NCBI GenBank assembly: GCA_043809245.1
Contig: JAZDDZ010000054.1
Location: forward strand, 36,838 to 100,837
Length of the DNA: 64,000 nucleotides
Source of the DNA: Candidatus Iainarchaeum sp.
GTDB lineage: Archaea; Iainarchaeota; Iainarchaeia; Iainarchaeales; JAZDDZ01
Direction: 5' to 3'
The translations under genes and the position numbers were made by a program. This document shows, piece after piece, positions 1,569 to 58,454 of this stretch. The notes beneath the pieces were generated by a model that saw only the letters and a list, made by a program, of their open reading frames with translations, ran no database searches and had not been told where the DNA came from. Every line of letters starts with the position of its first letter. The first letter of the stretch is position 1.

Positions 1569-3293
1569 ATGCGCGGAAAAAAGGTTTTTTTGGTTTTATT
1601 CTTTACAGCATTGCTTTTGGCAATTGCCTCTGCTGACACTTACCGCATTACAATAACGCCTCAAGCCGCAGTGCCTGACATAACCCCGCCAGTGATTTCC
1701 AGCGTGGCTTCCTCTTCAGTTGACCGCAATTCAGCGGTTATTACCTGGGCCACAAACGAGTCCTCTGATTCAAACGTGCTTTACGGCAAAACAAGCGCAA
1801 ACAAGAACCAAAGCAAATACTCTTTAACCATGGTTTTATCGCATTCAGTTTCCCTTACTTTGCTGGATGCAAACACCACTTATTATTATGCGGTCAAAAG
1901 CTGCGATGCAAACCATAACTGTGCCACTTCAAGCGAAAGCACGTTTAAGACAACAAGCTGTTCAGTCGGGCGCATTCTCTGCGGCAGCACATGCGTATTG
2001 CCTGCATGCAATGTGAACAGCGACTGCCCAAGCGACAACAACAGCACGACAACAGAGGTATGCAACAATCCAGGAACTTGCACAGCGTCCTGCGCGTCAG
2101 TGCCGCTACAGGCATGCCCTTCGGGAACAGCAATCAGCGCGCCATGCAGGTGCGGAAGCACAATAATAAGCAGCGGATTGTGCTGCAGCGGCACCCCAAA
2201 AATTCCCTGCACAAATGCCTCGGAATGCAATGACAATGATGTTTGCACAAACGACTCCTGCCTTAACCCGGGAACATGCAGTGCGGCTTGCACTAATGCA
2301 ACGGTTCCAAACTGCGTTCCACCACCAGTGTGCGGGGATGGAACATGCAGTGGAGGCGAAACTTGCTCTTCCTGTTCCAATGACTGCGGGGGATGCCCTG
2401 CAACACAGGTTTGCGGTGACGGAAGCTGCAGCGGAACAGAGGACTGCTCTTCATGCTCTAGCGACTGCGGCTCCTGCGGAACAGGGCCTGGCGGTTCGCC
2501 CGGTTCAAGCACTGGAACAGTTGCGCGTTGCGGCAACGGCTTGTGTGAAAGGGGCGGAGGAGAGAACACGCTTAACTGCCTTATTGACTGCGGAAACCAG
2601 AATGTTTTGGCGCAAATGGACAGCGACAATGACGGAAGCACTGCTGACAAGGACTGCGATGACAAGAATCCCGCTGTAAAGGAATGCACTGGCTGCATGA
2701 TCTGCAAAAAGAATGCCTGTGTTGAAACCGCTGCATGCGGAAATATTTCTTTGGATGACTCTGATGGGGACGGCTTGACCAATGCAAGGGAAGCCGAACT
2801 AGGCACAAATCCCAATGAAATTGACTCAGACAAGGACACTGTTAGCGACGGACAGGAAGGCCAGGACGGAACAGACCCCTTGGATGAAACAAGCAACCTT
2901 GTGAGGGTGCATGCTTTTGGAATAATAGATGTTAATGCAGTGCAGCAAATAACTTTGTCACACCCGAAAACAGGGAACGTGCGCGGATTTTACGTTGACA
3001 TAATTTCGCCGAGCGGAAGGATTTTCCATTTGCAGGCGGAGGATGACACTATAAGCTTTACGGTTAGCGAGCCGGGAAAATACATTGTGAAAGCATACAA
3101 GGAAGGGTTAAAGGATGAGACAACTTTCACTGTTAAAAAAGAAGGCGAAGTTGTGTTGCCTGGTTTGCCAGGGCAGCCGCAGACAATAGCGCCTTGGTGG
3201 CTGTTTGTCTTGCCGGTTATTTCAGCGGCGGTAAGCGCAGCGATTCTTTACGGCTATCTGGTCAGAAGGAAAAGGCTTGCGGGACAGGGATAA
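1569..3293 (+). CDS. Secreted Cys-rich surface protein with a C-terminal TM anchor: signal peptide, FN3-like domain, two tandem 6-Cys modules, and Asp-rich Ca-binding-like repeats
   Basis: N-terminal MRGKKVFLVLFFTALLLAIASA signal. VITWATNESSDSNVLYGKT is FN3-like. Tandem CGDGTCSGGETCSSCSNDCGGCP / CGDGSCSGTEDCSSCSSDCGSCG modules. DSDGDGLTNAREAELGTNPNEIDSDKD thrombospondin-type-3-like repeats. C-terminal hydrophobic helix followed by RRKR. Confidence 0.6.
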   Translation: MRGKKVFLVLFFTALLLAIASADTYRITITPQAAVPDITPPVISSVASSSVDRNSAVITWATNESSDSNVLYGKTSANKNQSKYSLTMVLSHSVSLTLLDANTTYYYAVKSCDANHNCATSSESTFKTTSCSVGRILCGSTCVLPACNVNSDCPSDNNSTTTEVCNNPGTCTASCASVPLQACPSGTAISAPCRCGSTIISSGLCCSGTPKIPCTNASECNDNDVCTNDSCLNPGTCSAACTNATVPNCVPPPVCGDGTCSGGETCSSCSNDCGGCPATQVCGDGSCSGTEDCSSCSSDCGSCGTGPGGSPGSSTGTVARCGNGLCERGGGENTLNCLIDCGNQNVLAQMDSDNDGSTADKDCDDKNPAVKECTGCMICKKNACVETAACGNISLDDSDGDGLTNAREAELGTNPNEIDSDKDTVSDGQEGQDGTDPLDETSNLVRVHAFGIIDVNAVQQITLSHPKTGNVRGFYVDIISPSGRIFHLQAEDDTISFTVSEPGKYIVKAYKEGLKDETTFTVKKEGEVVLPGLPGQPQTIAPWWLFVLPVISAAVSAAILYGYLVRRKRLAGQG

Positions 3294-25129: not shown

Positions 25130-25918
25130 TTGAATGCAACCGAACTCCTGTGGAAATTCAAGGCATCACTGCTGCTTTTATTTCTCATTCTCTTAAGCTA
25201 TGTTTTGCTTTCAAAGGGCGCTTTCTTCATTCCACTTGAATCGCTTTTGGCGGTTTCATTCAACGCGCAGATGCCCCTGAATATTTTTTTCTACGAATTC
25301 ATTCACACAGGCGTTTTCCACCTATCCGCAAACCTATTGTCGCTTCTCTTTTTCGCGCTTATTTTGGAGGCAGCGCTTTCCTCGCTTGATGTGGTGCTCG
25401 TGTTTCTTTTCTCCGGAACGCTTGCGGCAATTGTTTTTTCCTCGCTTAACCCTGCAACTGCAATGATTGGCGCGAGCGCGGGAATAAGCGGATTGTTTGG
25501 CGCTGCGTTTTCATTGAAGCCCTTGAAAACGCTTATTGCGACGGCTGCGGCTTTGGCTCTTCTTTACTTTGCGGTTGCGCCCGCGCTTTCATTTGCAATC
25601 GGGGAATTTGAAGCAAACTCAACGCAAAAGATTTCAGCGCTTGAACTGGATTTGAACAGGGCACGGGAACAGGGTGACCTGAACAAGGCTGCAGTGATTT
25701 CCAAAAAGCTAACTGAATCAAAAAAAGAGATTGAAAAATTCGGCGAGGGAAAAGAATTCGAAATCAAGACAAGCACTGATTTCTTTGTGCACGGCTATGC
25801 CGCCGCGTTCGGCTTCCTTTACGTTTTCTTATTCAGGAGAAAAAAGTTCTCGGAAGCAATGAAGGGGATAAGAGAGAAAAGAATTGCAGTTCAGGGAAAG
25901 ATTTTTGGAAAAAAATAA
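25130..25918 (+). CDS. Rhomboid-family intramembrane serine protease with an inserted amphipathic loop
   Basis: Multi-TM. GASAGISGLFGAAF (GxSxxxxG serine motif) and distal VHGYAAAFGFL (TM6 His). A ~60-aa charged insert sits between them. Confidence 0.5.
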   Translation: MNATELLWKFKASLLLLFLILLSYVLLSKGAFFIPLESLLAVSFNAQMPLNIFFYEFIHTGVFHLSANLLSLLFFALILEAALSSLDVVLVFLFSGTLAAIVFSSLNPATAMIGASAGISGLFGAAFSLKPLKTLIATAAALALLYFAVAPALSFAIGEFEANSTQKISALELDLNRAREQGDLNKAAVISKKLTESKKEIEKFGEGKEFEIKTSTDFFVHGYAAAFGFLYVFLFRRKKFSEAMKGIREKRIAVQGKIFGKK

Positions 25919-29909: not shown

Positions 29910-30536
29910 GTGAGTTTTATGCGAATGCTGCAAACCTTAATTGATTCGGATGCGAAGACAAGGCTTTTGGAAAAGCTTTTTGAGAGGCCGGGCGTATCTT
30001 TATCCGTGTCAGAACTTGGAAGGATTGCTGGCTTGTCTAAGGCATCTGTCTCAAATATAGTTTCTGAATGGGAAAAATCCGGATTGGCGCTCTCGGCACA
30101 CGAGGGCAGGAACAAGATGGTTTGCATTAACTGCAAGTTTTACCTGCTCCCTGAACTGAAAAGGATTTTCGAGAAAACTAAGGATTTTCAAAAGCCGTTA
30201 GTGGAGGAGCTAAGGAAAATGCCGAGCCTAAAAAACAAGGAAGTGAAAGCGGTAATAATGTTTGGCTCTAGGGCAGGAAAAGACTTCACACATTACTCGG
30301 ATTTTGATGTGCTTGTCGTGGTGGAAAACAGCAACAGCAATTTGTCTGAAAGAATCATGGAAGAATCAGTAAAAGTGTCTGAAATAACAGGCATTCGTTT
30401 TTCACCAGTGATAATGGGCACAAAGGACTTCAATGACAGATGGAAAGAAAAAGACAAGTTCATACAAAACATACTTAAGGAAGGCAGGGCACTCAAAGGA
30501 GGGAAATGGATTGGGAACATTCAAGCATCACGCTGA
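29910..30536 (+). CDS. wHTH-fused minimal nucleotidyltransferase (MNT, pol-beta superfamily)
   Basis: HTH SVSELGRIAGLSKASVSNIVSEW. NTase motif VIMFGSRAGKDFTHYSDFDVLVVV (hG[GS]...D.D). Confidence 0.6.
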   Translation: MSFMRMLQTLIDSDAKTRLLEKLFERPGVSLSVSELGRIAGLSKASVSNIVSEWEKSGLALSAHEGRNKMVCINCKFYLLPELKRIFEKTKDFQKPLVEELRKMPSLKNKEVKAVIMFGSRAGKDFTHYSDFDVLVVVENSNSNLSERIMEESVKVSEITGIRFSPVIMGTKDFNDRWKEKDKFIQNILKEGRALKGGKWIGNIQASR

Positions 30537-33994: not shown

Positions 33995-34379
33995 ATCAAT
34001 TGAAGGCTTTACAGATAAAGGGTCTGCGTTATAGCCGTATCGTTCAAACCATGTTTCAAATCCTATAAAACCACCCTGTGAAAAAATTTATTTCCTGACT
34101 AAAACCATTAACTGATTAACTAAACACCAGACTTATTTTTAAACCAAACAATTTTTAAGCAAATAACTGCAGCCAGATGCAAAAAAGTTCCCGTGAAAGT
34201 GTAAGATTTTTTGAAAAACACGCTAAAAGAGCAGTTTTAACCTGACTACTCTGCCTAAACCTTGACTAACCTTTAACGTTTATAAAACCGAACAGCGCTT
34301 ATTGGTTAAGAGATAAAAAAATTTCAATTAAACATAGTTACCGTGGTCTTCGACCACAAAAAGACGAGGTGGGAAAAAA

Positions 34380-37300
34380 ATGAGCAAAACAACAACTAAA
34401 CCAATTAACTCAACTTCAACAAGGCGATTAATCCCACTCACAATACTCATTTTCTGCCTAGCCATCGGAATATTCGCTGGAACGGCGAGCGCTGCGCACA
34501 ATAATAGTGCAACTATTTCCCCAGTATGGTCCACGCCAGGGGAAATTGAAGATTACACAGTAACCATTTGTAATGTGATAGGCGGTAATGATTCGATTGA
34601 TGAAGTAAGACTTTACCAGGCAACAGGGTATACAATACAAGATCCCCCAAATCAAAAAGATGGGTGGTATCTGTCACCATACCAGCCGACCAAGCATTAT
34701 TATCTATATACTGCAGAGAGTGCCGATAATTATATTGCTGCAGGAGAATGTACTGATTTTACATTTTCAGCAAAAACTCCAGAAAACGAAGCTGCCTGCA
34801 ATTTGGCATGGAAATTTGAAACAAGAGATATAACCAATGTGTGGAAAGAGGTAAATGCTTTTACAAGCGTTGATGGGCGAGCTCCAACCATAACAAAAAA
34901 TGTAATAGGACCACAACTAATGAACGGAGAAGGATGCCCTAATGGGCCAGGTGATGGAGAGGAATGCTGGGTACAGGATCACGAGACAACTATAACTGTT
35001 TCAGTTGAAGATACCCTCATTGAAGGCGGTTGTAACCCTCCAAGTGGAGTGGACTACTGCGATTTTACAATCACACTTGACGGTGTGCCAAATGACAGTT
35101 GGCGCATTGATGCAGAACAGGGAGCTGTTTATGACGAAATCGTATTCGAAGAAGATTCAGTTCATGTTCTAGGCATAACTTGCTATGATGTTGCGGGAAA
35201 TGATGTTACAGATACAGAAACATTCAGAGTAGACTCAACGCCGCCTGAAACCGATAAGACATTCAACGGCCCGCAGAAAATTGACGAGAAAGGCGTTGAA
35301 TGGATTGACGGCGTAACAACGGTTACATTAACTTCAGATGACCCCGAAGCGGAAACGACTCCTGAAGGCGTTGACTGCAGCATTGGTGTTGACAAGACAT
35401 GGTATGCAAATGAGCTTGCGGATGGCGAGAGCGCTTGCTTTAACCCAAACAATGCCGAGTATTGCCACGCAGTATTAAGAAATCCTTACGATGCGGAAGG
35501 GGCAAAGGAATGCATTGATGATGCACAAGTTTATTGTGAAGAAAACTGGGATGAAGACTGGGACAGCTGGGCAGCCTGCGTTGAGGACCTCGCACACAAT
35601 AACTGTGACGTTGATTCAAGATGGCATCTCTACGACGGAAACCCAATTCCAAAAGACGAGGAATCCTGCCATATACTCCAGTACTTCAGTATAGATGAAT
35701 TAGGCAACACAGAAGACATGCAGACAAACTGCTTCTTCGTTGACAAGACGCCGCCTGCAATTAGCAAGGATGTTGGCGATAACAAGGTTCCTCTTTGCAG
35801 TTTAGATGACGAGGGAACAGTAATAGTTGATGAATCAGAGATGAATAAAATCAAAGGAGAATTTGGACTAACAGTGACTAAAGAAGACATAGGGGACAGC
35901 ATCAAATGGACTTTCGACTTTGATGAAGAAGATATTTCAGGGCATACTTCAACTGGTGCGCAAGTAATTATTGCCAACGACTCAGTGCCTTTGTTCACTT
36001 TGGGCTGGAGTCCGGGTGAAAGCACAAGCGCGCCTGTTTACAAGCCTTACAGCGGAGGCTGGGGTGCAGCAACAACTGTTTTGCCTGCTGGAATGAGTGT
36101 TTCAGGAAACTATAATGAAACCTATTACGAAATAGTCATTCCAAAAGACGCTTTAGGCGGATGCCCGTATTATTGGGCAATAAATGGCGAAGCAACCGCG
36201 CCTCAGGCTTTGGGAACATCTAGTTCAGTCCAAGAAAACTACCCTGCAAACTGGGGAAGATGGACTGCAACAAATGCAGCTCAAGGCGGAAACGCGGACA
36301 ATTGGTGGGTTACAACTAAAACACCAATTACATTGAATTGTGAAGACGTTGGACCTCATCCAAGCGGCGACGTAACAATTTACTGGAAGTGGAGGTTTGA
36401 CGGCGGCGCATGGAATGAAGGAAGCTACCAAGGCGAAAGCTATGACCTATACTTTAACGAAGAATCAGTTCACGACTTGGAGTTCTGGTGCCAGGATGCA
36501 GTGCAGAAAGAATCAGAGCACGACACAGAGACATTCAGGGTTGACGACACACCGCCAGAAATTGACAAATCAATGCTCGGAGAAGAAGAGGTTGATTACC
36601 TCGGCGACTGCCCACCGCAAGACGAAGAAGACATATGCTTTGTCGCGGATAACGGCAGGGGCGGAGTGCACATTGATGTTTCAGACCCAGACCCAACTAC
36701 AATGGGCTGCAATGTTGACAACAGCACCTGTAACTACGAGCTGTGGTGGCAGACAACCCTGGCTAACTGCCAGGAATATGTTGGCCCAGACCACTTATAC
36801 AATGATGGAACAGGCGAATGCTTTGTGGAAGGAGGCCAATTCGGAGAGGACGGAACAGACATTCTCTTCACACAGGACTCAACCCACAGGCTTGTAGTCA
36901 ACTGTGAGGACGCATTGGGCAATGAAATGAACACAGACACAGAGTACTTTAAAGTTGACTCAACGCCTCCGGTTACAACAAAGACTTACGGTGAACCAGC
37001 ATACCCAGAGAACATCAATGAACCGGGACCATACCCGCACTGGATCACAAGCGATACACCGATAACGCTGGAAGCGACAGACAACAAGGTTGGAGTTGAC
37101 AAGACATTCTGGAGATACGCAGTTGTTGACAACCAATGGTGTGAGACAGAGGCAAGCGGTTGCTCAACTTATGACGGAGAGCTTCCTGACTTTACAGAAT
37201 ATACTGGAACCGTCACACTTCCGGAAGAGTCATGCCACTTGATTGAATTCTACAGCAAAGACTTGCTCGGAAACACAGAGAAAGCAAACAGGCAGTGCGT

Positions 37301-39434
37301 GTTCGTGGATAACAGCGCACCGGAAGTAGATAAGAACGTCGGTGAAAACAAGGTTGCCTGCGAGGAAGGCGAGGTATGCGATTACTACATCAACCAGAAC
37401 ACGCCGATAAGCTTGTCCTGCGAGGATGTGCTCCCACACCCGGTTGGAAATGTTTCACTGTGGTACCATTACAGGTATGCAAAGACCTGCGATGACCTTG
37501 GAACTGCAACTTGGTCTGAATTGGTTGACACTGAGGGAGAACCCATTTACTTCACAGAGGACTCATGCCACGAGTTAGAGTACTACTGCGAGGACGCATT
37601 GGGCAACACATCAGACACTTTCAGCGAAATAGACATTGTTGACACACAGCCACCTGAAATCACAAGTTCAATTGACGGCCCAAGCATTGTAATCGGTGAA
37701 AAGACATACATTGACACGGTTACAAAGATTCACATTGAAGCAACAGATCCAGATCCGCACCCAGTTGACAATGTGAAGTGCGAATGGTCTTACATCTTGG
37801 ATGACGGCCAGAGTATCTTCGGGGGAGACGATCAGGCACCTCCTTTGGATATAACTTTCCCTGAGGAATCAAAGCACAAACTGCACGTCAAGTGCTGGGA
37901 TGCATTGAAGAACAAAAGCGAACTGGTTGAAACATACTACGCTGACCACACGCCTCCGACAACTACAAAGACTTACGGAGACCCATTCTTCCAAGGCGAA
38001 GGAAGCGAGTGGATTAACAGCACTACACCCATAACTTTAACAGTTGACGATACAGGCATACACAAAACAGGAATTAAGGAAACAGATTACAGGGTAACGC
38101 TCGTTGACGACAGCTACTGCAGGCCGCCGGTGCAATGCATTGGTGACTGCATTGAAAGCGTCGTTTTGCCAAGCTGCGAGAATGCAGAAGGCTCATACGC
38201 CTGGCAAACCTATGAAGGGGAGCCATTCACAATAGGTGAGGAGTCATGCCACCTAATAGAGTACTACTCTGTGGATAACGTTGACAAGACAGAGAAAACA
38301 AAGAAACAGTGTGTCTTTGTTGACAACCAGCCACCCACTCCAGTAAAAACAGTCGGTGACCCCAACAGCGTGTGGACTCCTGGAAAGAATGGGGATGTTG
38401 AATCCTATTTCTACCCAGAGGAGACGGCTCACTGTTGGGATGGAACAGATCAAAACATTGACTGCTGGAAAGTCACATTGATGACTCCAATTAAATTGGA
38501 ATGCAATGACCCACAGCCACACCCAGTTGATAATGCAAAAGTTTGCTTCCAACTTGGTTTGGACGGGCAGGATGCAACGGAAAAATACTGCTCGCCGCGT
38601 AAATACAATGGGGAGATGGAAGACGGCTACTGCTGTGTTGGAAGTGAAATAGATCCATTCTATTTCAAAGAGGAGTCAGAGCACAACCTGAAGTACTACT
38701 GCGAGGATGCATTAGGCAACAGCAATAAGTTGGATGTGGATGAGGAGAAATTCAAGGTAGAAGGACAGCCATTCGAGATAAAGCTCTACAAGAAATGGAA
38801 TCTCATCTCAGTGCCATTCGTATTGCTGGACAGCAATGTTCAGGAAGTATTCAAAGGGCTTGACAAAAACATAGAATCCGTCTGGTCATATGATGGAACA
38901 ACAGGCGAATGGTCTGTCTACAGACCAGGAGTGCCAAGCAACTTGACAGAGATAAAACCAGGCTGGGGCTACTGGGTGAACGCATATAACAAGGTAAAGG
39001 TGCTCATTGGAGGAGCACTATTCTCGCCTGCTACAGTGCCACCGAGCAAGCCACTAGCGCAGGGCTGGAACCTCATTGGAACCTACGGTCTTAACTGGCA
39101 GGAATACCCAGACATGGATGACACAAAGTTGATTTGCGGTGTTCCATTCGGAAAAGTCTTCGGAACCAATGTCTACTGCGGTCTGAACTCACTTGTTGGA
39201 TCCATACAGGAAGGGCCAAGGTGGGCTTCCCTTGTAGGCTATGTTAGATGCAGCGACTACGATACGCAAGGCCAGTGGACTACAATGAATGCCTGCATTA
39301 ACAACTTCAACAAGTTGTATGCGGGAAGGGGTTACTGGATATACATGCGCATGAGTGACATCTACGCTCCGGCCACAACCTGCATCTGGAACGAAGACAA
39401 TATCTGCATTGACAACAATCCAAAATGGTTTTAA
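34380..39434 (+). CDS. Giant (1684 aa) secreted cell-surface protein: N-terminal signal/anchor, ~10 tandem Ig/HYR-like beta-sandwich repeats, and a distinct C-terminal domain
   Basis: SD GGTGG then ATG. N-terminal LIPLTILIFCLAIGIFAGTASAAH. The motif EESCH.IEYYS.D.LGN.E......FVD.TPP..K recurs ~10 times. C-terminal region KKWNLISVPF...WSYDG..GEWSVY...PGWGYWV. Confidence 0.7.
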   Translation: MSKTTTKPINSTSTRRLIPLTILIFCLAIGIFAGTASAAHNNSATISPVWSTPGEIEDYTVTICNVIGGNDSIDEVRLYQATGYTIQDPPNQKDGWYLSPYQPTKHYYLYTAESADNYIAAGECTDFTFSAKTPENEAACNLAWKFETRDITNVWKEVNAFTSVDGRAPTITKNVIGPQLMNGEGCPNGPGDGEECWVQDHETTITVSVEDTLIEGGCNPPSGVDYCDFTITLDGVPNDSWRIDAEQGAVYDEIVFEEDSVHVLGITCYDVAGNDVTDTETFRVDSTPPETDKTFNGPQKIDEKGVEWIDGVTTVTLTSDDPEAETTPEGVDCSIGVDKTWYANELADGESACFNPNNAEYCHAVLRNPYDAEGAKECIDDAQVYCEENWDEDWDSWAACVEDLAHNNCDVDSRWHLYDGNPIPKDEESCHILQYFSIDELGNTEDMQTNCFFVDKTPPAISKDVGDNKVPLCSLDDEGTVIVDESEMNKIKGEFGLTVTKEDIGDSIKWTFDFDEEDISGHTSTGAQVIIANDSVPLFTLGWSPGESTSAPVYKPYSGGWGAATTVLPAGMSVSGNYNETYYEIVIPKDALGGCPYYWAINGEATAPQALGTSSSVQENYPANWGRWTATNAAQGGNADNWWVTTKTPITLNCEDVGPHPSGDVTIYWKWRFDGGAWNEGSYQGESYDLYFNEESVHDLEFWCQDAVQKESEHDTETFRVDDTPPEIDKSMLGEEEVDYLGDCPPQDEEDICFVADNGRGGVHIDVSDPDPTTMGCNVDNSTCNYELWWQTTLANCQEYVGPDHLYNDGTGECFVEGGQFGEDGTDILFTQDSTHRLVVNCEDALGNEMNTDTEYFKVDSTPPVTTKTYGEPAYPENINEPGPYPHWITSDTPITLEATDNKVGVDKTFWRYAVVDNQWCETEASGCSTYDGELPDFTEYTGTVTLPEESCHLIEFYSKDLLGNTEKANRQCVFVDNSAPEVDKNVGENKVACEEGEVCDYYINQNTPISLSCEDVLPHPVGNVSLWYHYRYAKTCDDLGTATWSELVDTEGEPIYFTEDSCHELEYYCEDALGNTSDTFSEIDIVDTQPPEITSSIDGPSIVIGEKTYIDTVTKIHIEATDPDPHPVDNVKCEWSYILDDGQSIFGGDDQAPPLDITFPEESKHKLHVKCWDALKNKSELVETYYADHTPPTTTKTYGDPFFQGEGSEWINSTTPITLTVDDTGIHKTGIKETDYRVTLVDDSYCRPPVQCIGDCIESVVLPSCENAEGSYAWQTYEGEPFTIGEESCHLIEYYSVDNVDKTEKTKKQCVFVDNQPPTPVKTVGDPNSVWTPGKNGDVESYFYPEETAHCWDGTDQNIDCWKVTLMTPIKLECNDPQPHPVDNAKVCFQLGLDGQDATEKYCSPRKYNGEMEDGYCCVGSEIDPFYFKEESEHNLKYYCEDALGNSNKLDVDEEKFKVEGQPFEIKLYKKWNLISVPFVLLDSNVQEVFKGLDKNIESVWSYDGTTGEWSVYRPGVPSNLTEIKPGWGYWVNAYNKVKVLIGGALFSPATVPPSKPLAQGWNLIGTYGLNWQEYPDMDDTKLICGVPFGKVFGTNVYCGLNSLVGSIQEGPRWASLVGYVRCSDYDTQGQWTTMNACINNFNKLYAGRGYWIYMRMSDIYAPATTCIWNEDNICIDNNPKWF

Positions 39435-39570
39435 ATGAAAAAACGGGATAATGCATTTATCCCGTTCCTCCTTTCTTTTTTCTTTTCCTGAAGAAAAGGA
39501 TATATTTAAATAAATTGGCTAGGGAGAATATTTAGGTCAAATTAACCTTTTAACTGAATTAGGGGATTAA

Positions 39571-40743
39571 ATGAAGGTTGGGCAAATTTTTGGATTAATT
39601 GTTTCAATCCTATTTGTTTTTGCAATATCCAATTCAGTTTTAGCAGCGCCAGGGATCCCACACCAGTTTTTCGGCAATGTTACGATTAGTGGGCAGCCCG
39701 CGCCTAATGGAACAGTTATTGTTGCAAAGGGCGCCGGATACGAAAATGACACCACAACCACTTTGAATGGAACGTATGGTTATTCCCCTGTTTTTTTTGT
39801 GCATAACCCGAATGACAATAGGTCAGGAAAATTAATTGAGTTCTATATTGGCGACACTAAGGTTGGCGAGGCAACATTCGTAAAGGGGGGCTGCAACCTT
39901 TGTGGAGAAAATTGCGCCCTAGAAGCCTGTGTACCTTTAAATTTTGACGCTCCTTCAAGCGGCCCGATTTGCGGTGACACAAGCTGTAATGGAGCAGAGA
40001 ACTGTTCCACTTGCCCGCAGGACTGCGGAACATGCCCTCCTGCAGAGCCACCTCCAGTGATTAGCGGAGGCGGTGGCGGAGGGGGCGGCGGTGGAGGCGG
40101 AGGCGGAACAGCCACGCCGATTTTCGCGGTTGACAAGAACACTGCAATCATTGGCGAGACAGTCACTGTTACGGTTAAGTGCCTTTGGACTTACGGCTGC
40201 GTTTTAAACATTGACGGAAACCAGGTTCAGCAGTTCATTAACAGCATTGGATTGAAAAAATACGAGGCAAAATTTGATTCACCCGGAACAAAAGTCATTG
40301 AATTCCACAGGAAGGGAATGGGTGACACGCTTTTGGGAAATAAAAGCATTGTGATTTTGTCAGCGGAACAGGCACAGGCAATAGAGGATGGAAATGCAGT
40401 TGAAGAAGTTGTAAACATTCCAATAGACGACTGCGAGGGCGTTGTATGCCAGGACGATAATCCTTGCACTGCGGATTTTTGCGCGAACGCTGACTGCAAG
40501 TACGTTGCATTGGATGATGGAGTAGGATGCCAGTTAAACGGAGCGCAGGGAACATGCACTGCAGGGGAATGCGTTGTAGAGGAAGCGCCTGAAGGAAACT
40601 TGCCTTCAGCCACGGGTTTGTTCGGTTTGCCGGGAATGAGCGGTGGAATCATTTTGGGGTTAATTGTTTTGCTTGCAATTGATTTAATCGCTTTTTTTGT
40701 TGTCAGAAAAAACAGGTTAAACGCGGGAAAAGGCGCAAAATAA
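39571..40743 (+). CDS. Secreted Cys-rich surface protein with a Gly13 linker and a C-terminal TM anchor
   Basis: Signal MKVGQIFGLIVSILFVFAISNSVLAAPG. 6-Cys module CGDTSCNGAENCSTCPQDCGTCPP. Poly-Gly SGGGGGGGGGGGGGGTATP. Second Cys-rich block CEGVVCQDDNPCTADFCANADCKY...GTCTAGECV. C-terminal GGIILGLIVLLAIDLIAFFVV + RKNRL. Confidence 0.65.
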   Translation: MKVGQIFGLIVSILFVFAISNSVLAAPGIPHQFFGNVTISGQPAPNGTVIVAKGAGYENDTTTTLNGTYGYSPVFFVHNPNDNRSGKLIEFYIGDTKVGEATFVKGGCNLCGENCALEACVPLNFDAPSSGPICGDTSCNGAENCSTCPQDCGTCPPAEPPPVISGGGGGGGGGGGGGGTATPIFAVDKNTAIIGETVTVTVKCLWTYGCVLNIDGNQVQQFINSIGLKKYEAKFDSPGTKVIEFHRKGMGDTLLGNKSIVILSAEQAQAIEDGNAVEEVVNIPIDDCEGVVCQDDNPCTADFCANADCKYVALDDGVGCQLNGAQGTCTAGECVVEEAPEGNLPSATGLFGLPGMSGGIILGLIVLLAIDLIAFFVVRKNRLNAGKGAK

Positions 40744-54944: not shown

Positions 54945-57900
54945 TTGGCAATGAAAAAAGCAATTTTGCTCGGGGTTCTGCTGTTATCGCTGTTTTCCCT
55001 TAGCGTTCATGCAAGCGAATGCGATAGCCCTAAACCAAACTGGTTTTTCTGCCACGATTTTGAAGCTTCTGATTCAGGGAATTTCGCAAAGTACTGGGAT
55101 GATTTCGGGGACTTGGTTACAGCAAACAGGGAGATAGCCCTTAGAAACGAGAACGTACCCAGCCTTGAAGGCACAAAGAGCGTAAGGTTTCTGATAAAGA
55201 ACGAAACAGGAAGCGCAATTTCCGCTGTCGGAGCAGGGTTCAAAAAATTCTTTGGCACGGCATACAGCCAAGTGGGCTATGACACTGTTTACTACCGCTT
55301 CTACTTCCGCCTCAACGAGCAATGGAGCCATGGCTGGGGCATGCACTGGCTGAGCTTAAGCGGCTGCAACGTAAACAGCAATGTATGGGGCTGCATGGGA
55401 ACAGCAGGCCTTAAGCCTGATGGAACCAACTGGTTTTCAGTTGGCACAGACCTTTGGACAAACTGGGAAAGCATTCCCGCACCAGGCGAAATTGTTACAT
55501 ATTCTTATCACATGGACCTAACCCCTGATGGCCATGGCGATTACTTTGGGGAGAACATGACCCCGCACCCGGGAATTTCACCTGAAAGGGGAAAATGGCA
55601 TGTCATCGAGATGATGGGAAAATCAAACACCCCGGGATTGTATGATGGCGAACAAAAAATCTGGTTTGACGGCAAGCTAGTCGGAAATTATTCAGGCATT
55701 AGATGGCGCTCAACAAACGACGTTAAAATTACATACGCGGGCTTCTACATCTACATCCACAACCCCCCCGCAAATTCACTGAACTACATTGACAACGACA
55801 ACGTGGTTTTCAGCACCTCCTATATAGGCCCCGCAAAATGCGTTGACAGTGTTTCAATTGAAGCCCCGTGCTATTGTGGTGGAACGCCTTCTCCAACCAA
55901 TTCATCCAATATTTATGCAAGCGGAGTCTGCCTTGGCAATGTTTGGTATGAATCCAATGCACAATGCACTGTAAACGGCCAGACAAGAAGCTGCTCAACA
56001 GGGAAGAACGGAATCTGTGCAACAGGAACACAAACATGCTCAGGGGGAAACTGGGGCACGTGCATTCAAAACCTGCAGGCAGGAAACGAAGTGTGCGATG
56101 ATGCAGGCAATTTGGACGAGGACTGCGATGGCCTGAGTAACTGTGATGACACAGGCTGTTCCACTAATCCAGCCTGCCAGTCTGCGGAGGAGACTTATTA
56201 CATTTTCGGTGGCGCAACCGATAATTACTGGCCTGGCGCCTATCCTGATTCAAGCGACAGCATCACAAGAACCACTAACAACCCTGCCGCTGGAACCCAT
56301 AACCTGCAGTTCCCTTCAACTGGCGCGTGGATGAATGTAAATATTTATGGAGTTTCAATTCCGACAGCTGACTTGGACTGGGCAAATTCTTATCTGGAAT
56401 TCAAAATTTCCACCTCCGCGCCTGTTGGCTATATGGAAGCGCATTTGGGTTCCAGCAGCGGCGCCTATCCCTACAAAACTTTCACAACAACAGGAACTGG
56501 TTATGACACAATACGGATTAACCTAACTGATTTTGCCGCGACAAAAGCCGCATTTGGCAGTTCAATCGCGGGCTTCTTCATCGGCGGAGGCTGGCCAGCT
56601 TCAACTGTTTACATTGACGAAATCAAAATCGTTTCACCCGGAACAAGCCCACAGCCGTGCACGGAAAACTGGAGCTGCACTACATGGAGCAGCTGTGTGA
56701 ACAACCAACAGACACGCACCTGCACGGATTTGGCCGGATGCGGCACCACGGCAAACAAGCCGATTGAAACGCAAACATGCACAACCTGCACGGAGCAATG
56801 GAGCTGCACGCAATGGAGCGCATGCAGCAACGGTTCACAATCACGCACTTGCTCTGATCCAAACCCTTCAACAACAAATTGCCCCGCGCTTCCAAAACCA
56901 ATGGAAACTCAGAGTTGCACTGTCGGGCAGGTTTGTGAAACAACGGCCGAACACTGCAAATACGCGAGCAACCGCACGGATTCAGGAACCGGCAGCTTCA
57001 GCGACCCCTGGAACATTTCCCAGGCGTTCACAAATGCTTCTGCGGGAGACCTTGTTTATTTCAGGGGCGGGGAATATGATGTAAGCGCCGGCACACCACA
57101 GATAACCACCTCCGGTACTTCGGATGCCTGGATAACCTTCAAGGCATATCCTGAGGAAAATCCACACCTCGACGCAAAATATATGGGGAAATGCCCGATT
57201 GAATTATATCAGGTCAGAAATATCATTATTGATGGCTTCGAGATTTCAGGGATAGGTGAAGGTCCCTCAGGCGAAACCTGTGGCGGAGGCATCTATCTAA
57301 AAGGTTCTGCAGATTTGAAGGGGGAAAATATTACTATAAGGAACAACGATTTGCACGGGCTGGAACTATGCACCATAGGGACAATATGCACCAACAGGGG
57401 GCTGATAAAAACCTATGAATACAATAACGTGATTATTGAGAACAACACCATTCATGACATAACTTCCGGAACTTATGGCGGGAACAATACTGCAGGAATT
57501 TACATCATGTCAGGGGGATTATTTGGCCGGCCATATGACGGGATAAATATGATAATCAGGAATAACCACATATACAACATGTTCGGCCAGGTGCTTTGCA
57601 TAAAGCACAAGTACCCAAACCACGGCCCCTACTTAATTGAAGGCAATACACTTCATGACTGTGCCACAGCTTTTTATACAAGCGGTCTGGATGAGGCGAT
57701 ATTCCGGAATAATTTGATTTATAATGTTACTCTTGGAATAGATGACGCTGGTTACCAAGTCGGTTCCTGGAACTACACTGCTGAGCCTTTTGAAATTACA
57801 AATAATACTTTCTACAGCATATATGTTGCGGCATTGATATTCAGGGACAACGATATCACTCCGAGAATAATTGAAAAAAATATTTTTGTTGACTCAAGCG

Positions 57901-58454
57901 GCAGCGGTGGAGCAGACAATTCGGCGGATATTTCCATAAGGGAGCCAGTATCCTATGTTGGAATTGAAAGTAATGCCAATTGTGTCTGGTATCCTGGCTC
58001 GCAATATCATGTGAGATACCATAACCCCTATAGCTGTTCAGGAGGATGCCTTAGTTTTGAAGGGGCGCAACTGAGCCCTTATTTTTATGATTTGGATTCA
58101 GTCAAGCTCAGTGATTCCCAGGCCGCGGGCCTTTTCGTGAACCCCCCCGCAGGCGATTTCCATCTCAACAACCCTTCGCTGTGCCCTGGAATAGGCGCAT
58201 ATGCAAATGCACTGCAGTGCACGGTAAATGTTGCGACGCCCTGCACGATTTTCCTCGCTGGCGGGACAATAAGCGCCTGCTCACAGCAGAGCCTGATTTA
58301 CCAGTATGATGCAACAGCAACAGTAAACAACACTGTAAACGGCCTGCAGGCGAATAAATCGCATGACATAAAAATTGAGAACATCACGCAGGGAACGGAG
58401 CAGAACATTTCAGCAACCACCAACTCAAACGGAGTGCTGCAATTCAATTCATGA
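54945..58454 (+). CDS. Secreted 1169-aa protein: N-terminal domain, MopE-like Asp/Cys motif, TSP1-like W-S-C repeats, and a right-handed parallel beta-helix repeat region
   Basis: Signal MAMKKAILLGVLLLSLFSLSVHASE. VCDDAGNLDEDCDGLSNCDD. WSCTTWSSCVNNQQTRTCTDLAGCG / WSCTQWSACSNGSQSRTCSD. PbH1-like repeats NNDLHG / NNTIHD / RNNHIYN / EGNTLHD / RNNLIYN / TNNTFYS. Confidence 0.7.
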   Translation: MAMKKAILLGVLLLSLFSLSVHASECDSPKPNWFFCHDFEASDSGNFAKYWDDFGDLVTANREIALRNENVPSLEGTKSVRFLIKNETGSAISAVGAGFKKFFGTAYSQVGYDTVYYRFYFRLNEQWSHGWGMHWLSLSGCNVNSNVWGCMGTAGLKPDGTNWFSVGTDLWTNWESIPAPGEIVTYSYHMDLTPDGHGDYFGENMTPHPGISPERGKWHVIEMMGKSNTPGLYDGEQKIWFDGKLVGNYSGIRWRSTNDVKITYAGFYIYIHNPPANSLNYIDNDNVVFSTSYIGPAKCVDSVSIEAPCYCGGTPSPTNSSNIYASGVCLGNVWYESNAQCTVNGQTRSCSTGKNGICATGTQTCSGGNWGTCIQNLQAGNEVCDDAGNLDEDCDGLSNCDDTGCSTNPACQSAEETYYIFGGATDNYWPGAYPDSSDSITRTTNNPAAGTHNLQFPSTGAWMNVNIYGVSIPTADLDWANSYLEFKISTSAPVGYMEAHLGSSSGAYPYKTFTTTGTGYDTIRINLTDFAATKAAFGSSIAGFFIGGGWPASTVYIDEIKIVSPGTSPQPCTENWSCTTWSSCVNNQQTRTCTDLAGCGTTANKPIETQTCTTCTEQWSCTQWSACSNGSQSRTCSDPNPSTTNCPALPKPMETQSCTVGQVCETTAEHCKYASNRTDSGTGSFSDPWNISQAFTNASAGDLVYFRGGEYDVSAGTPQITTSGTSDAWITFKAYPEENPHLDAKYMGKCPIELYQVRNIIIDGFEISGIGEGPSGETCGGGIYLKGSADLKGENITIRNNDLHGLELCTIGTICTNRGLIKTYEYNNVIIENNTIHDITSGTYGGNNTAGIYIMSGGLFGRPYDGINMIIRNNHIYNMFGQVLCIKHKYPNHGPYLIEGNTLHDCATAFYTSGLDEAIFRNNLIYNVTLGIDDAGYQVGSWNYTAEPFEITNNTFYSIYVAALIFRDNDITPRIIEKNIFVDSSGSGGADNSADISIREPVSYVGIESNANCVWYPGSQYHVRYHNPYSCSGGCLSFEGAQLSPYFYDLDSVKLSDSQAAGLFVNPPAGDFHLNNPSLCPGIGAYANALQCTVNVATPCTIFLAGGTISACSQQSLIYQYDATATVNNTVNGLQANKSHDIKIENITQGTEQNISATTNSNGVLQFNS

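Follow-up and report, generated by a model that had tools for sequence, protein, structure and literature searches.

The 64-kb stretch of DNA analysed here (the window), part of contig JAZDDZ010000054.1, encodes on its forward strand a giant protein of 1684 amino acids (aa) and, as the next gene, a smaller protein of 390 aa; we refer to them as the giant and its partner (Table 1). The giant gene is an uninterrupted open reading frame (ORF) from ATG to TAA that takes up 7.9% of the window, which bears out the initial annotation of this DNA, where a single ORF of about 5 kb and 1684 aa, filling about 8% of the window, had been ascribed to a DPANN archaeon. Its product is 100% identical to NCBI MFH1257227.1 (V1494_08130, "Candidatus Diapherotrites archaeon") across the portion that this record covers, and neighbouring genes of the window, encoding S4e, eIF2-gamma, aIF5B, and a Sec61-type SecY, are archaeal; the source is, by these sequence matches, a Diapherotrites (DPANN) metagenome-assembled genome. 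A database search with the giant protein retrieved 119 homologs of 1285-2590 aa with 30-53% identity. Frame disruptions, which would have pointed to a pseudogene, are absent from the ORF, and the homologs share its organisation, so that a pseudogene or an artefact can be ruled out.

The giant protein and its repeats

The N-terminus of the giant reads as a Sec-type signal peptide, with a basic n-region (RR at 15-16), a hydrophobic core (residues 17-35), and then ASA followed by AH. This segment is the sole Kyte-Doolittle hydrophobic peak in the whole protein, and the N-terminal domain of the homologs begins at median residue 36. Since the cleavage site is a canonical AxA, removal of the signal peptide is more likely than its retention as an anchor; of the N-terminal "signal/anchor" that had been proposed before, the Sec-type signal stands and the anchor does not. 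The mature protein would have a mass of 183.6 kDa and an isoelectric point (pI) of 4.12, as computed from the translation, and 61 residues of the giant (3.6%) are Cys. Judged from these features, it is a secreted protein of the kind expected at the cell surface. The deposited call MFH1257227.1 (1543 aa; region concerned 34380-34805) begins only at Leu142 of the ORF, which deprives it of the signal peptide and of the larger part of the N-terminal domain. On comparative grounds, the ATG at 34380 is a better start than the deposited one because residues 51-150, most of which MFH1257227.1 cuts off, align in 111-113 of the 119 homologs. The truncated call hides the signal peptide, and screens for secreted proteins would therefore miss the giant gene. 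A spacer of 385 nt precedes the gene, for which Table 1 lists candidate promoter and ribosome-binding elements. The 5' leader also contains a short inverted repeat (GTGGTC-TTC-GACCAC, 34343-34357), which the Shine-Dalgarno-like element follows after about 9 nt.

Most of the giant consists of repeats that end in the signature E-E/D-S-x-H ... (A/L)GN ... VD-x-T/S/Q-P-P. It occurs nine times, with ends at aa 284, 454, 721, 859, 976, 1087, 1188, and 1314 and a degenerate copy at about 1458, spaced by 101-170 aa, or by 267 aa for R3, where a non-repeat insert of about 180 aa sits. Since the N-terminal domain (39-171) likewise closes with VDGRAPT, a count of about ten domains is fair. The initial annotation had described about ten degenerate repeats of about 110-130 aa with 2-6 conserved Cys each; its number of domains can be kept, its lengths are too narrow, and Cys, present in every repeat, number 2-9 in each. 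The repeats are mutually homologous (25-55% identity and up to 75 bits in pairwise BLASTP) and fall into two subtypes, A (R2, R5, and R8) and B (all others). The giant gene contains no tandem repeats at the DNA level, from which it follows that the duplications are ancient; recent expansion of the slippage type is ruled out on the same basis.

The affiliation of these repeats with HYR and other bacterial Ig-like (immunoglobulin-like) families, also part of the initial annotation, was not upheld. The search of all Pfam models, HYR (PF02494), Big_x, CARDB, and He_PIG among them, gave zero matches to the whole protein at E ≤ 1 and to single repeats at E ≤ 10, and what likeness to HYR and Big_x there is lies in the overall Ig-like fold and in a short (A/L)GN ... 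VD.TPP motif. Such matches do occur elsewhere: in a related genome (L001), the surface protein encoded nearby at 855-3587 matches He_PIG and Big_7 and, more weakly, HYR and Big_9, and the homolog P0018 has a borderline Big_13 match (30.2 bits). The only family model matched by the giant is the OmpL47-type beta-barrel domain of NCBIfam (NF047446, 68 positions; 98.9 bits against a cutoff of 40, E = 1.7e-28), best in R5 (E = 8.8e-10), R8 (6.5e-7), and R2 (1.7e-4) and weakly in R6 and R9. The full-length OmpL47 equivalog (NF047441) stays below threshold, with 77 bits against a cutoff of 250. A search of PDB sequences with the repeat profile gave nothing below E = 0.2.

At the level of structure, the Ig-like fold suggested for the repeats, for which an AlphaFold prediction had been recommended, fared well. 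From 21 aligned family segments (alignment A2), AlphaFold2 (AF2) modelled R5-R7 as three all-beta domains (predicted local distance difference test, pLDDT, 93.5; predicted template modelling score, pTM, 0.79). Foldseek retrieved 192 PDB matches to this model at E ≤ 0.001, led by FN3 triplets and including contactin FN3 arrays, SiiE (TMq 0.44), the GhpA grappling hook (TMq 0.43), mastigonemes, and the Deinococcus HPI S-layer protein. On this model, R5-R7 are Ig/FN3-like beta-sandwiches, so that the misfolding named as a refutation in the initial annotation did not arise. Nearly invariant Cys pairs within the repeats (C57/C64, C88/C109, C150/C206, and C270/C308 in the numbering of alignment A2) suggest that the domains are held by intradomain disulfides.

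Terminal domains, cassette, and the DPANN family

The repeats are followed by a C-terminal domain of a different kind, as had been noticed before, although its length is 221 aa and not about 250. It comprises two homologous beta units of about 100 aa (WNLIS.P ... W.YD ... PG.GYW; hhalign probability 95%, E = 2e-8). The AF2 model of the domain is all-beta (pLDDT 85.3, pTM 0.85) and, when submitted to Foldseek, found no fold match in the PDB or BFVD. Of the 120 listed proteins, 117 contain the domain, and it invariably closes the chain, followed by a median of 2 residues; from the alignments, it is the most conserved part of the giant family. At E ≤ 1e-30, an exhaustive search with its profile returned 294 representative clusters, and weaker matches ran into the thousands. 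Among PDB sequences, the profile matched SAKe designed Kelch-type propellers (E down to 3e-10). We reject these as relatives because the match is a hairpin of about 25 residues (W.YD...W) summed over the designed repeats, in which no single stretch passes, and because AF2 shows a two-unit beta domain of 221 aa. The matches to the profile include P0224 (NCBI MCF7912336.1, Candidatus Cloacimonadota bacterium), a surface protein of 3424 aa with eight copies of the C-terminal half-unit (WNLIS...GYW) that carries PKD, LamG, cadherin-like, and dockerin domains as well. Given these eight copies in a bacterial protein, the half-unit is a wider extracellular module, one for which Pfam has no model.

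Among the 120 listed members of the family, 73 have an N-terminal domain of the same type as the giant; this domain matched nothing in Pfam or NCBIfam, and nothing below E = 0.2 among PDB sequences. The cassette inserted in R3 (aa ~470-650) was matched in only 3 of the 120, including P0001, which is the record of the giant itself, and it gave neither a Pfam match nor a PDB sequence match below E = 0.2. Other members of the family carry VWA/integrin-beta-like or DUF4215 domains in mid-protein, and the number of repeats differs among members (3-11 subtype-B matches per protein). Such exchangeable cassettes, combined with varying repeat number, look like the variability of adhesins.

The repeats and the C-terminal domain are common to essentially all 119 homologs, and the median Cys content of the family is 3.9%. 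Homologs with a named source come mostly from Diapherotrites, Aenigmarchaeota, Woesearchaeota, Pacearchaeota, Nanoarchaeota, and Micrarchaeota. The giant is, as far as the sequences tell, a member of a large DPANN-wide family, with about 300 clusters when grouped at 50% identity, in which the C-terminal domain is always terminal. Family members were also found on contigs labelled Omnitrophota, Chloroflexi, and Pseudomonadota (L006, L007, and L012) and on contigs labelled Methanosarcinales (L017, L047, L067, and L072-L074). Several such contigs are short (5-12 kb), and L017 and L072 measure about 45 kb; mis-binned DPANN contigs seem a more likely source of these labels than true presence in those groups. 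In several genomes, two or three giants in tandem precede one partner, or giant-partner pairs alternate (L001/L043, L019, L026, L029, L031, L032, L041, L054, and L064). Tandem giants that share one partner have 50-64% identity in the C-terminal domain, and their N-terminal 150 aa are unalignable. We found no description of the giant family, its C-terminal domain, or the gene pair in a literature search that covered subscription journals thinly.

The partner gene

The gene that follows the giant had been overlooked by the initial annotation, together with the large DPANN family and the conservation of the C-terminal domain, and it is the partner that changes the likely mechanism. The partner protein consists of a signal peptide, a conserved N-domain of about 115 aa (PHQFFGNVTISGQPAPNGT...), a Cys-rich linker, a poly-Gly run, a variable middle, and a C-terminal part with an A-T-G-L-F motif, a transmembrane (TM) helix, and a basic tail. 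Three partners were searched against Pfam and NCBIfam, including the PGF-CTERM/LPXTG sorting-signal models, with no match, and the partner N-domain has no homology to the modules of the giant (hhalign probability ≤ 1%).

Partner homologs follow giants in two loci fetched by protein identity. On a larger scale, the search with the C-terminal domain profile yielded 75 loci, 69 of which could be evaluated for a downstream partner: in 60 of these 69, a same-strand partner ORF (about 300 aa) lies directly after the giant, at a median gap of 74 nt. These 60 partners include 56 with a C-terminal TM helix, 54 with a basic tail, and 43 with a Gly/Ser run. The tail has three parts in the window (40620-40743) and across loci (L002-L076), namely an [I/P]TG[F/A/L] motif, 5-15 residues, and a TM helix with Lys/Arg, and, of the 56 tails inspected, most have the motif ahead of the helix. 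This arrangement resembles LPXTG and PGF-CTERM signals and may represent a novel signal for processing or lipid anchoring.

Between the two genes of the window lies a stable hairpin (-16.1 kcal/mol, z = -4.2) followed by a T-rich tract, which together are terminator- or attenuator-like, and then a TATA-like box. These elements suggest termination or attenuation after the giant gene and a separate promoter for the partner, despite their conserved adjacency, so that the two genes may have separate transcripts or differ in transcript level.

Two further proteins of the window recall the linker of the partner. The first (574 aa, 1569-3293), with a Pur_ac_phosph_N domain and a TSP3 repeat, has a short Cys-rich stretch in common with the window partner and with both other partners tested. 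The second (1169 aa, 54945-58454), which has no Pfam match, matched the partner of L002 only. Both may be part of a wider set of surface proteins with a common linker.

Table 1. Features of the giant-partner locus (window positions; residues refer to the giant unless stated otherwise)
Feature	Position	Strand	Residues	Remarks
TATA-like element TTTATAAAA	34279-34287	+		Upstream of giant gene; read from sequence, putative function
Shine-Dalgarno-like element GAGGTGGG	34366-34373	+		Ends 6 nt before giant ATG; read from sequence, putative function
Giant gene	34380-39434	+	1-1684	Uninterrupted ATG-to-TAA ORF
Sec-type signal peptide	34380-34493	+	1-38	...GTASA/AH; read from sequence
N-terminal domain	34494-34892	+	39-171	Unrelated to repeats
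R1	34893-35246	+	172-289	Subtype B
R2	35247-35756	+	290-459	Subtype A; Cys-rich expansion; OmpL47-type
R3	35757-36557	+	460-726	Subtype B; holds insert cassette
Variable cassette	35787-36329	+	~470-650	Non-repeat insert inside R3
R4	36558-36971	+	727-864	Subtype B
R5 (A), R6 (B), R7 (B)	36972-37958	+	865-1193	Three consecutive beta-sandwiches in AF2 model
R8	37959-38336	+	1194-1319	Subtype A; OmpL47-type
R9	38337-38768	+	1320-1463	Subtype B; degenerate terminal motif KVEGQPF
C-terminal domain	38769-39431	+	1464-1684	221 aa; unrelated to repeats
Hairpin and T-rich tract	39442-39487	+		10-bp hairpin at 39442-39466, starting 8 nt after giant stop
TATA-like element TTTAAATA	39505-39512	+		Upstream of partner gene; read from sequence, putative function
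Partner gene	39571-40743	+	390 aa (partner)	Next gene after giant

A possible two-part surface fibre

On whether the giant and its partner form a two-component fibre at the cell surface, we consider the balance to be even. The giant would be secreted as a very acidic, Cys-rich fibre of about ten Ig/FN3-like domains, with its head at the N-terminus and the cassette in the third repeat, and after cleavage of the signal peptide it would have no membrane anchor of its own. Its C-terminal double-beta domain would dock non-covalently on the N-domain of the partner, which in turn would be tethered by the flexible Gly-rich linker and the C-terminal TM helix or sorting-signal-like tail, so that the variable N-terminal end and the cassette could point outward and bind another cell or substrate. 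What favours two parts is that the giant lacks an anchor and that the partner has one and is adjacent. The C-terminus is favoured as the docking end because its domain is the most conserved and is kept by tandem paralogs whose N-termini cannot be aligned, and because the divergence of the partner N-domain tracks this domain better than the neighbouring repeats: distances between partner N-domains correlate with those between C-terminal domains at r = 0.49 (0 of 2000 permutations) and with those between adjacent repeats at r = 0.31 (bootstrap difference 0.19 [0.04-0.36]), a mirror-tree signal that is modest and confounded by shared phylogeny. That confounding weighs against the proposed fibre, as do four other points. 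No downstream partner was detectable in 9 of the 69 evaluable loci; the hairpin, T-tract, and TATA-like box between the genes mean that they need not be co-transcribed; docking might instead involve the N-terminal domain, which about 60% of members conserve; and the Ig-like fold is generic and by itself no proof of adhesion. Host attachment and episymbiosis, to which the initial annotation had also looked, would be a further step of inference.

A more specific version of this proposal, which we put forward tentatively and think rather less probable, is an undescribed DPANN two-gene module, in which a disulfide-rich Ig-like fibre with a variable head is plugged, through a novel C-terminal double-beta domain, into a membrane-tethered socket protein. 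If this were true, the socket protein may be processed at a new sorting signal made of [I/P]TG[F/A/L], TM helix, and basic residues, the module would be general hardware for displaying interchangeable binding heads in many DPANN archaea, and it would possibly be the long-sought basis of DPANN cell-cell contact or of their envelope.

The envelope leads to the alternative that survives best, which we nevertheless regard as unlikely: a two-component S-layer (surface layer), the main envelope of these DPANN archaea, with the giant as the lattice-forming outer protein (SlaA-like) and the partner as its stalk (SlaB-like). In Sulfolobales, SlaA and SlaB are, respectively, a large secreted multi-Ig-like protein without anchor and a smaller one that combines a signal peptide with a TM helix at its C-terminus and provides the tie to the membrane (10.1101/2023.10.27.564410). 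The same working layout is found here, where a large secreted anchorless protein adjoins a signal-peptide protein of about 300 aa with a C-terminal TM helix in most evaluable loci. The giant is acidic (pI 4.1) and has Ig-like domains, as described for SlaA and other archaeal S-layer proteins, a Deinococcus S-layer protein is among its Foldseek matches, and the giant-partner pair spans many DPANN lineages. The genes of the Sulfolobales pair stand in the same order, in the slaAB operon. Against the parallel, SlaB has a coiled coil at the place where the partners have a poly-Gly linker. No sequence relationship of our pair to SlaA or SlaB was detected, and no S-layer model of Pfam or NCBIfam matches either of them. 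Composition also argues against an S-layer: S-layer proteins have almost no sulfur amino acids and many glycosylation sites (10.1101/2021.04.28.441871), whereas the giant has 3.6% Cys, with a still higher median in its family, and its N-glycosylation sequons are not enriched (12, against 13.5 ± 3.5 expected). Tandem sets of two or three paralogs whose N-termini are unrelated, and variable VWA-type cassettes, are typical of adhesin families rather than of a lone lattice protein. Finally, most DPANN archaea lack a determined S-layer protein (10.1101/2023.10.27.564410), which would leave room for this family, yet Micrarchaeota and Nanoarchaeota have other, highly expressed candidates (Micr_00292, NEQ300, and MJ1_0160; 10.1101/2021.04.28.441871; 10.1101/2023.10.27.564410) and loci so labelled carry the giant family too.

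We find it quite doubtful that the giant is instead a stand-alone adhesin, as the initial annotation would have it, held by an uncleaved N-terminal signal-anchor, with the repeats as stalk, the C-terminal domain as ligand-binding tip, and a downstream gene that is unrelated or loosely related. The only hydrophobic segment is indeed N-terminal, a terminator-like hairpin separates the two genes, and the C-terminal half-unit might serve as a module for binding, since a bacterial giant repeats it alongside PKD and LamG domains. On the other hand, the h-region is followed by the canonical AxA motif, and the C-terminal domain is the most conserved across lineages with presumably different hosts or ligands, whereas it is the other end that paralogs vary; moreover, adjacency of the partner in 60 of 69 loci goes far beyond what unrelated genes would show. 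Least probable is a secreted, non-anchored protein acting off the cell, as a matrix or biofilm scaffold or as the carrier of an unrecognised enzymatic or toxin cassette (aa 470-650): the giant has no anchor of its own, its cassette and N-terminal domain match no family of assigned function, and its Cys-rich, disulfide-stabilised domains suit extracellular life, but no catalytic or toxin family of Pfam or NCBIfam matches it and the conserved pairing with a membrane-anchored protein favours retention at the surface. For both of these alternatives, the AxA site and the partner synteny lower the likelihood relative to the two-part fibre.

Several known systems share parts of this architecture. OmpL47-type proteins, with OmpL47 of Leptospira interrogans as prototype, are matched best by R5, R8, and R2 through the EESCH.IE(Y/F)YS.D..GN.E......VD core. 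OmpL47 is reported as one of the surface-exposed, outer-membrane-spanning proteins of that bacterium (PMC2698987) and also figures in an article on the elastin-binding OmpL37 (PMC2935396). Unlike OmpL47, the giant is archaeal, five times longer, and flanked by other N- and C-terminal domains, and it comes with an anchored partner and without an outer membrane. With SiiE of Salmonella (2yn5), GhpA of Aureispira (9flw), and RTX adhesins, the giant shares a stalk of tandem beta-sandwiches, an acidic nature, and, in some family members, VWA cassettes of the ligand-binding type. It differs from this group in a sequence identity of only 10-14%, and it has no signal or retention module of type I secretion systems and no detected signature of Ca-binding repeats; in a single-membrane archaeon, anchoring would presumably be left to a separate protein. 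Closest in setting are the SPEARE proteins of Nanohaloarchaeota (such as SVXNc_0300, 9,409 aa), which have a Sec signal and long Ig-like arrays and are proposed to contact the host (PMC10266531). The giant is likewise a DPANN surface-type protein with a Sec signal and an array of Ig-like domains. SPEARE proteins reach 5-9 kaa and include both a TM segment and, on the cytoplasmic side, a VirB4/TraG-like ATPase domain (PMC10266531), whereas the giant, with 1684 aa, has neither a TM segment of its own nor an ATPase match, and has instead a C-terminal double domain and a separate anchor gene. In comparison with the S-layer pair of Sulfolobales, its family is distinguished by its Cys-rich, multi-copy nature and variable cassettes. 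Giant DPANN surface proteins with Ig-like repeats are thus known; the conserved pairing with a dedicated anchored partner and the unassigned terminal modules are, to our knowledge, new.

For the attachment and envelope composition of DPANN archaea, candidate proteins exist in only a few cultured species, and they belong to other families. The locus described here offers a handle for their study, since it combines a family of some 300 clusters with defined modules and a specific predicted partner. Three or four of these modules, namely the N-terminal domain and C-terminal double domain of the giant, the N-domain of its partner, and the cassette, fall outside Pfam, and one of them is without a fold match in the PDB and BFVD.

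The remainder of the window includes a large ribosomal-protein operon; no tRNA, rRNA, or any other Rfam family reached threshold in the 64 kb. The housekeeping context also comprises genes for a rhomboid-family intramembrane protease (25130-25918) and for an NTP_transf_2 nucleotidyltransferase with an N-terminal MarR-type winged helix-turn-helix (29910-30536). The latter protein is reminiscent of the DPANN-specific MNT family described in PMC6393860, although no HEPN domain turned up here.

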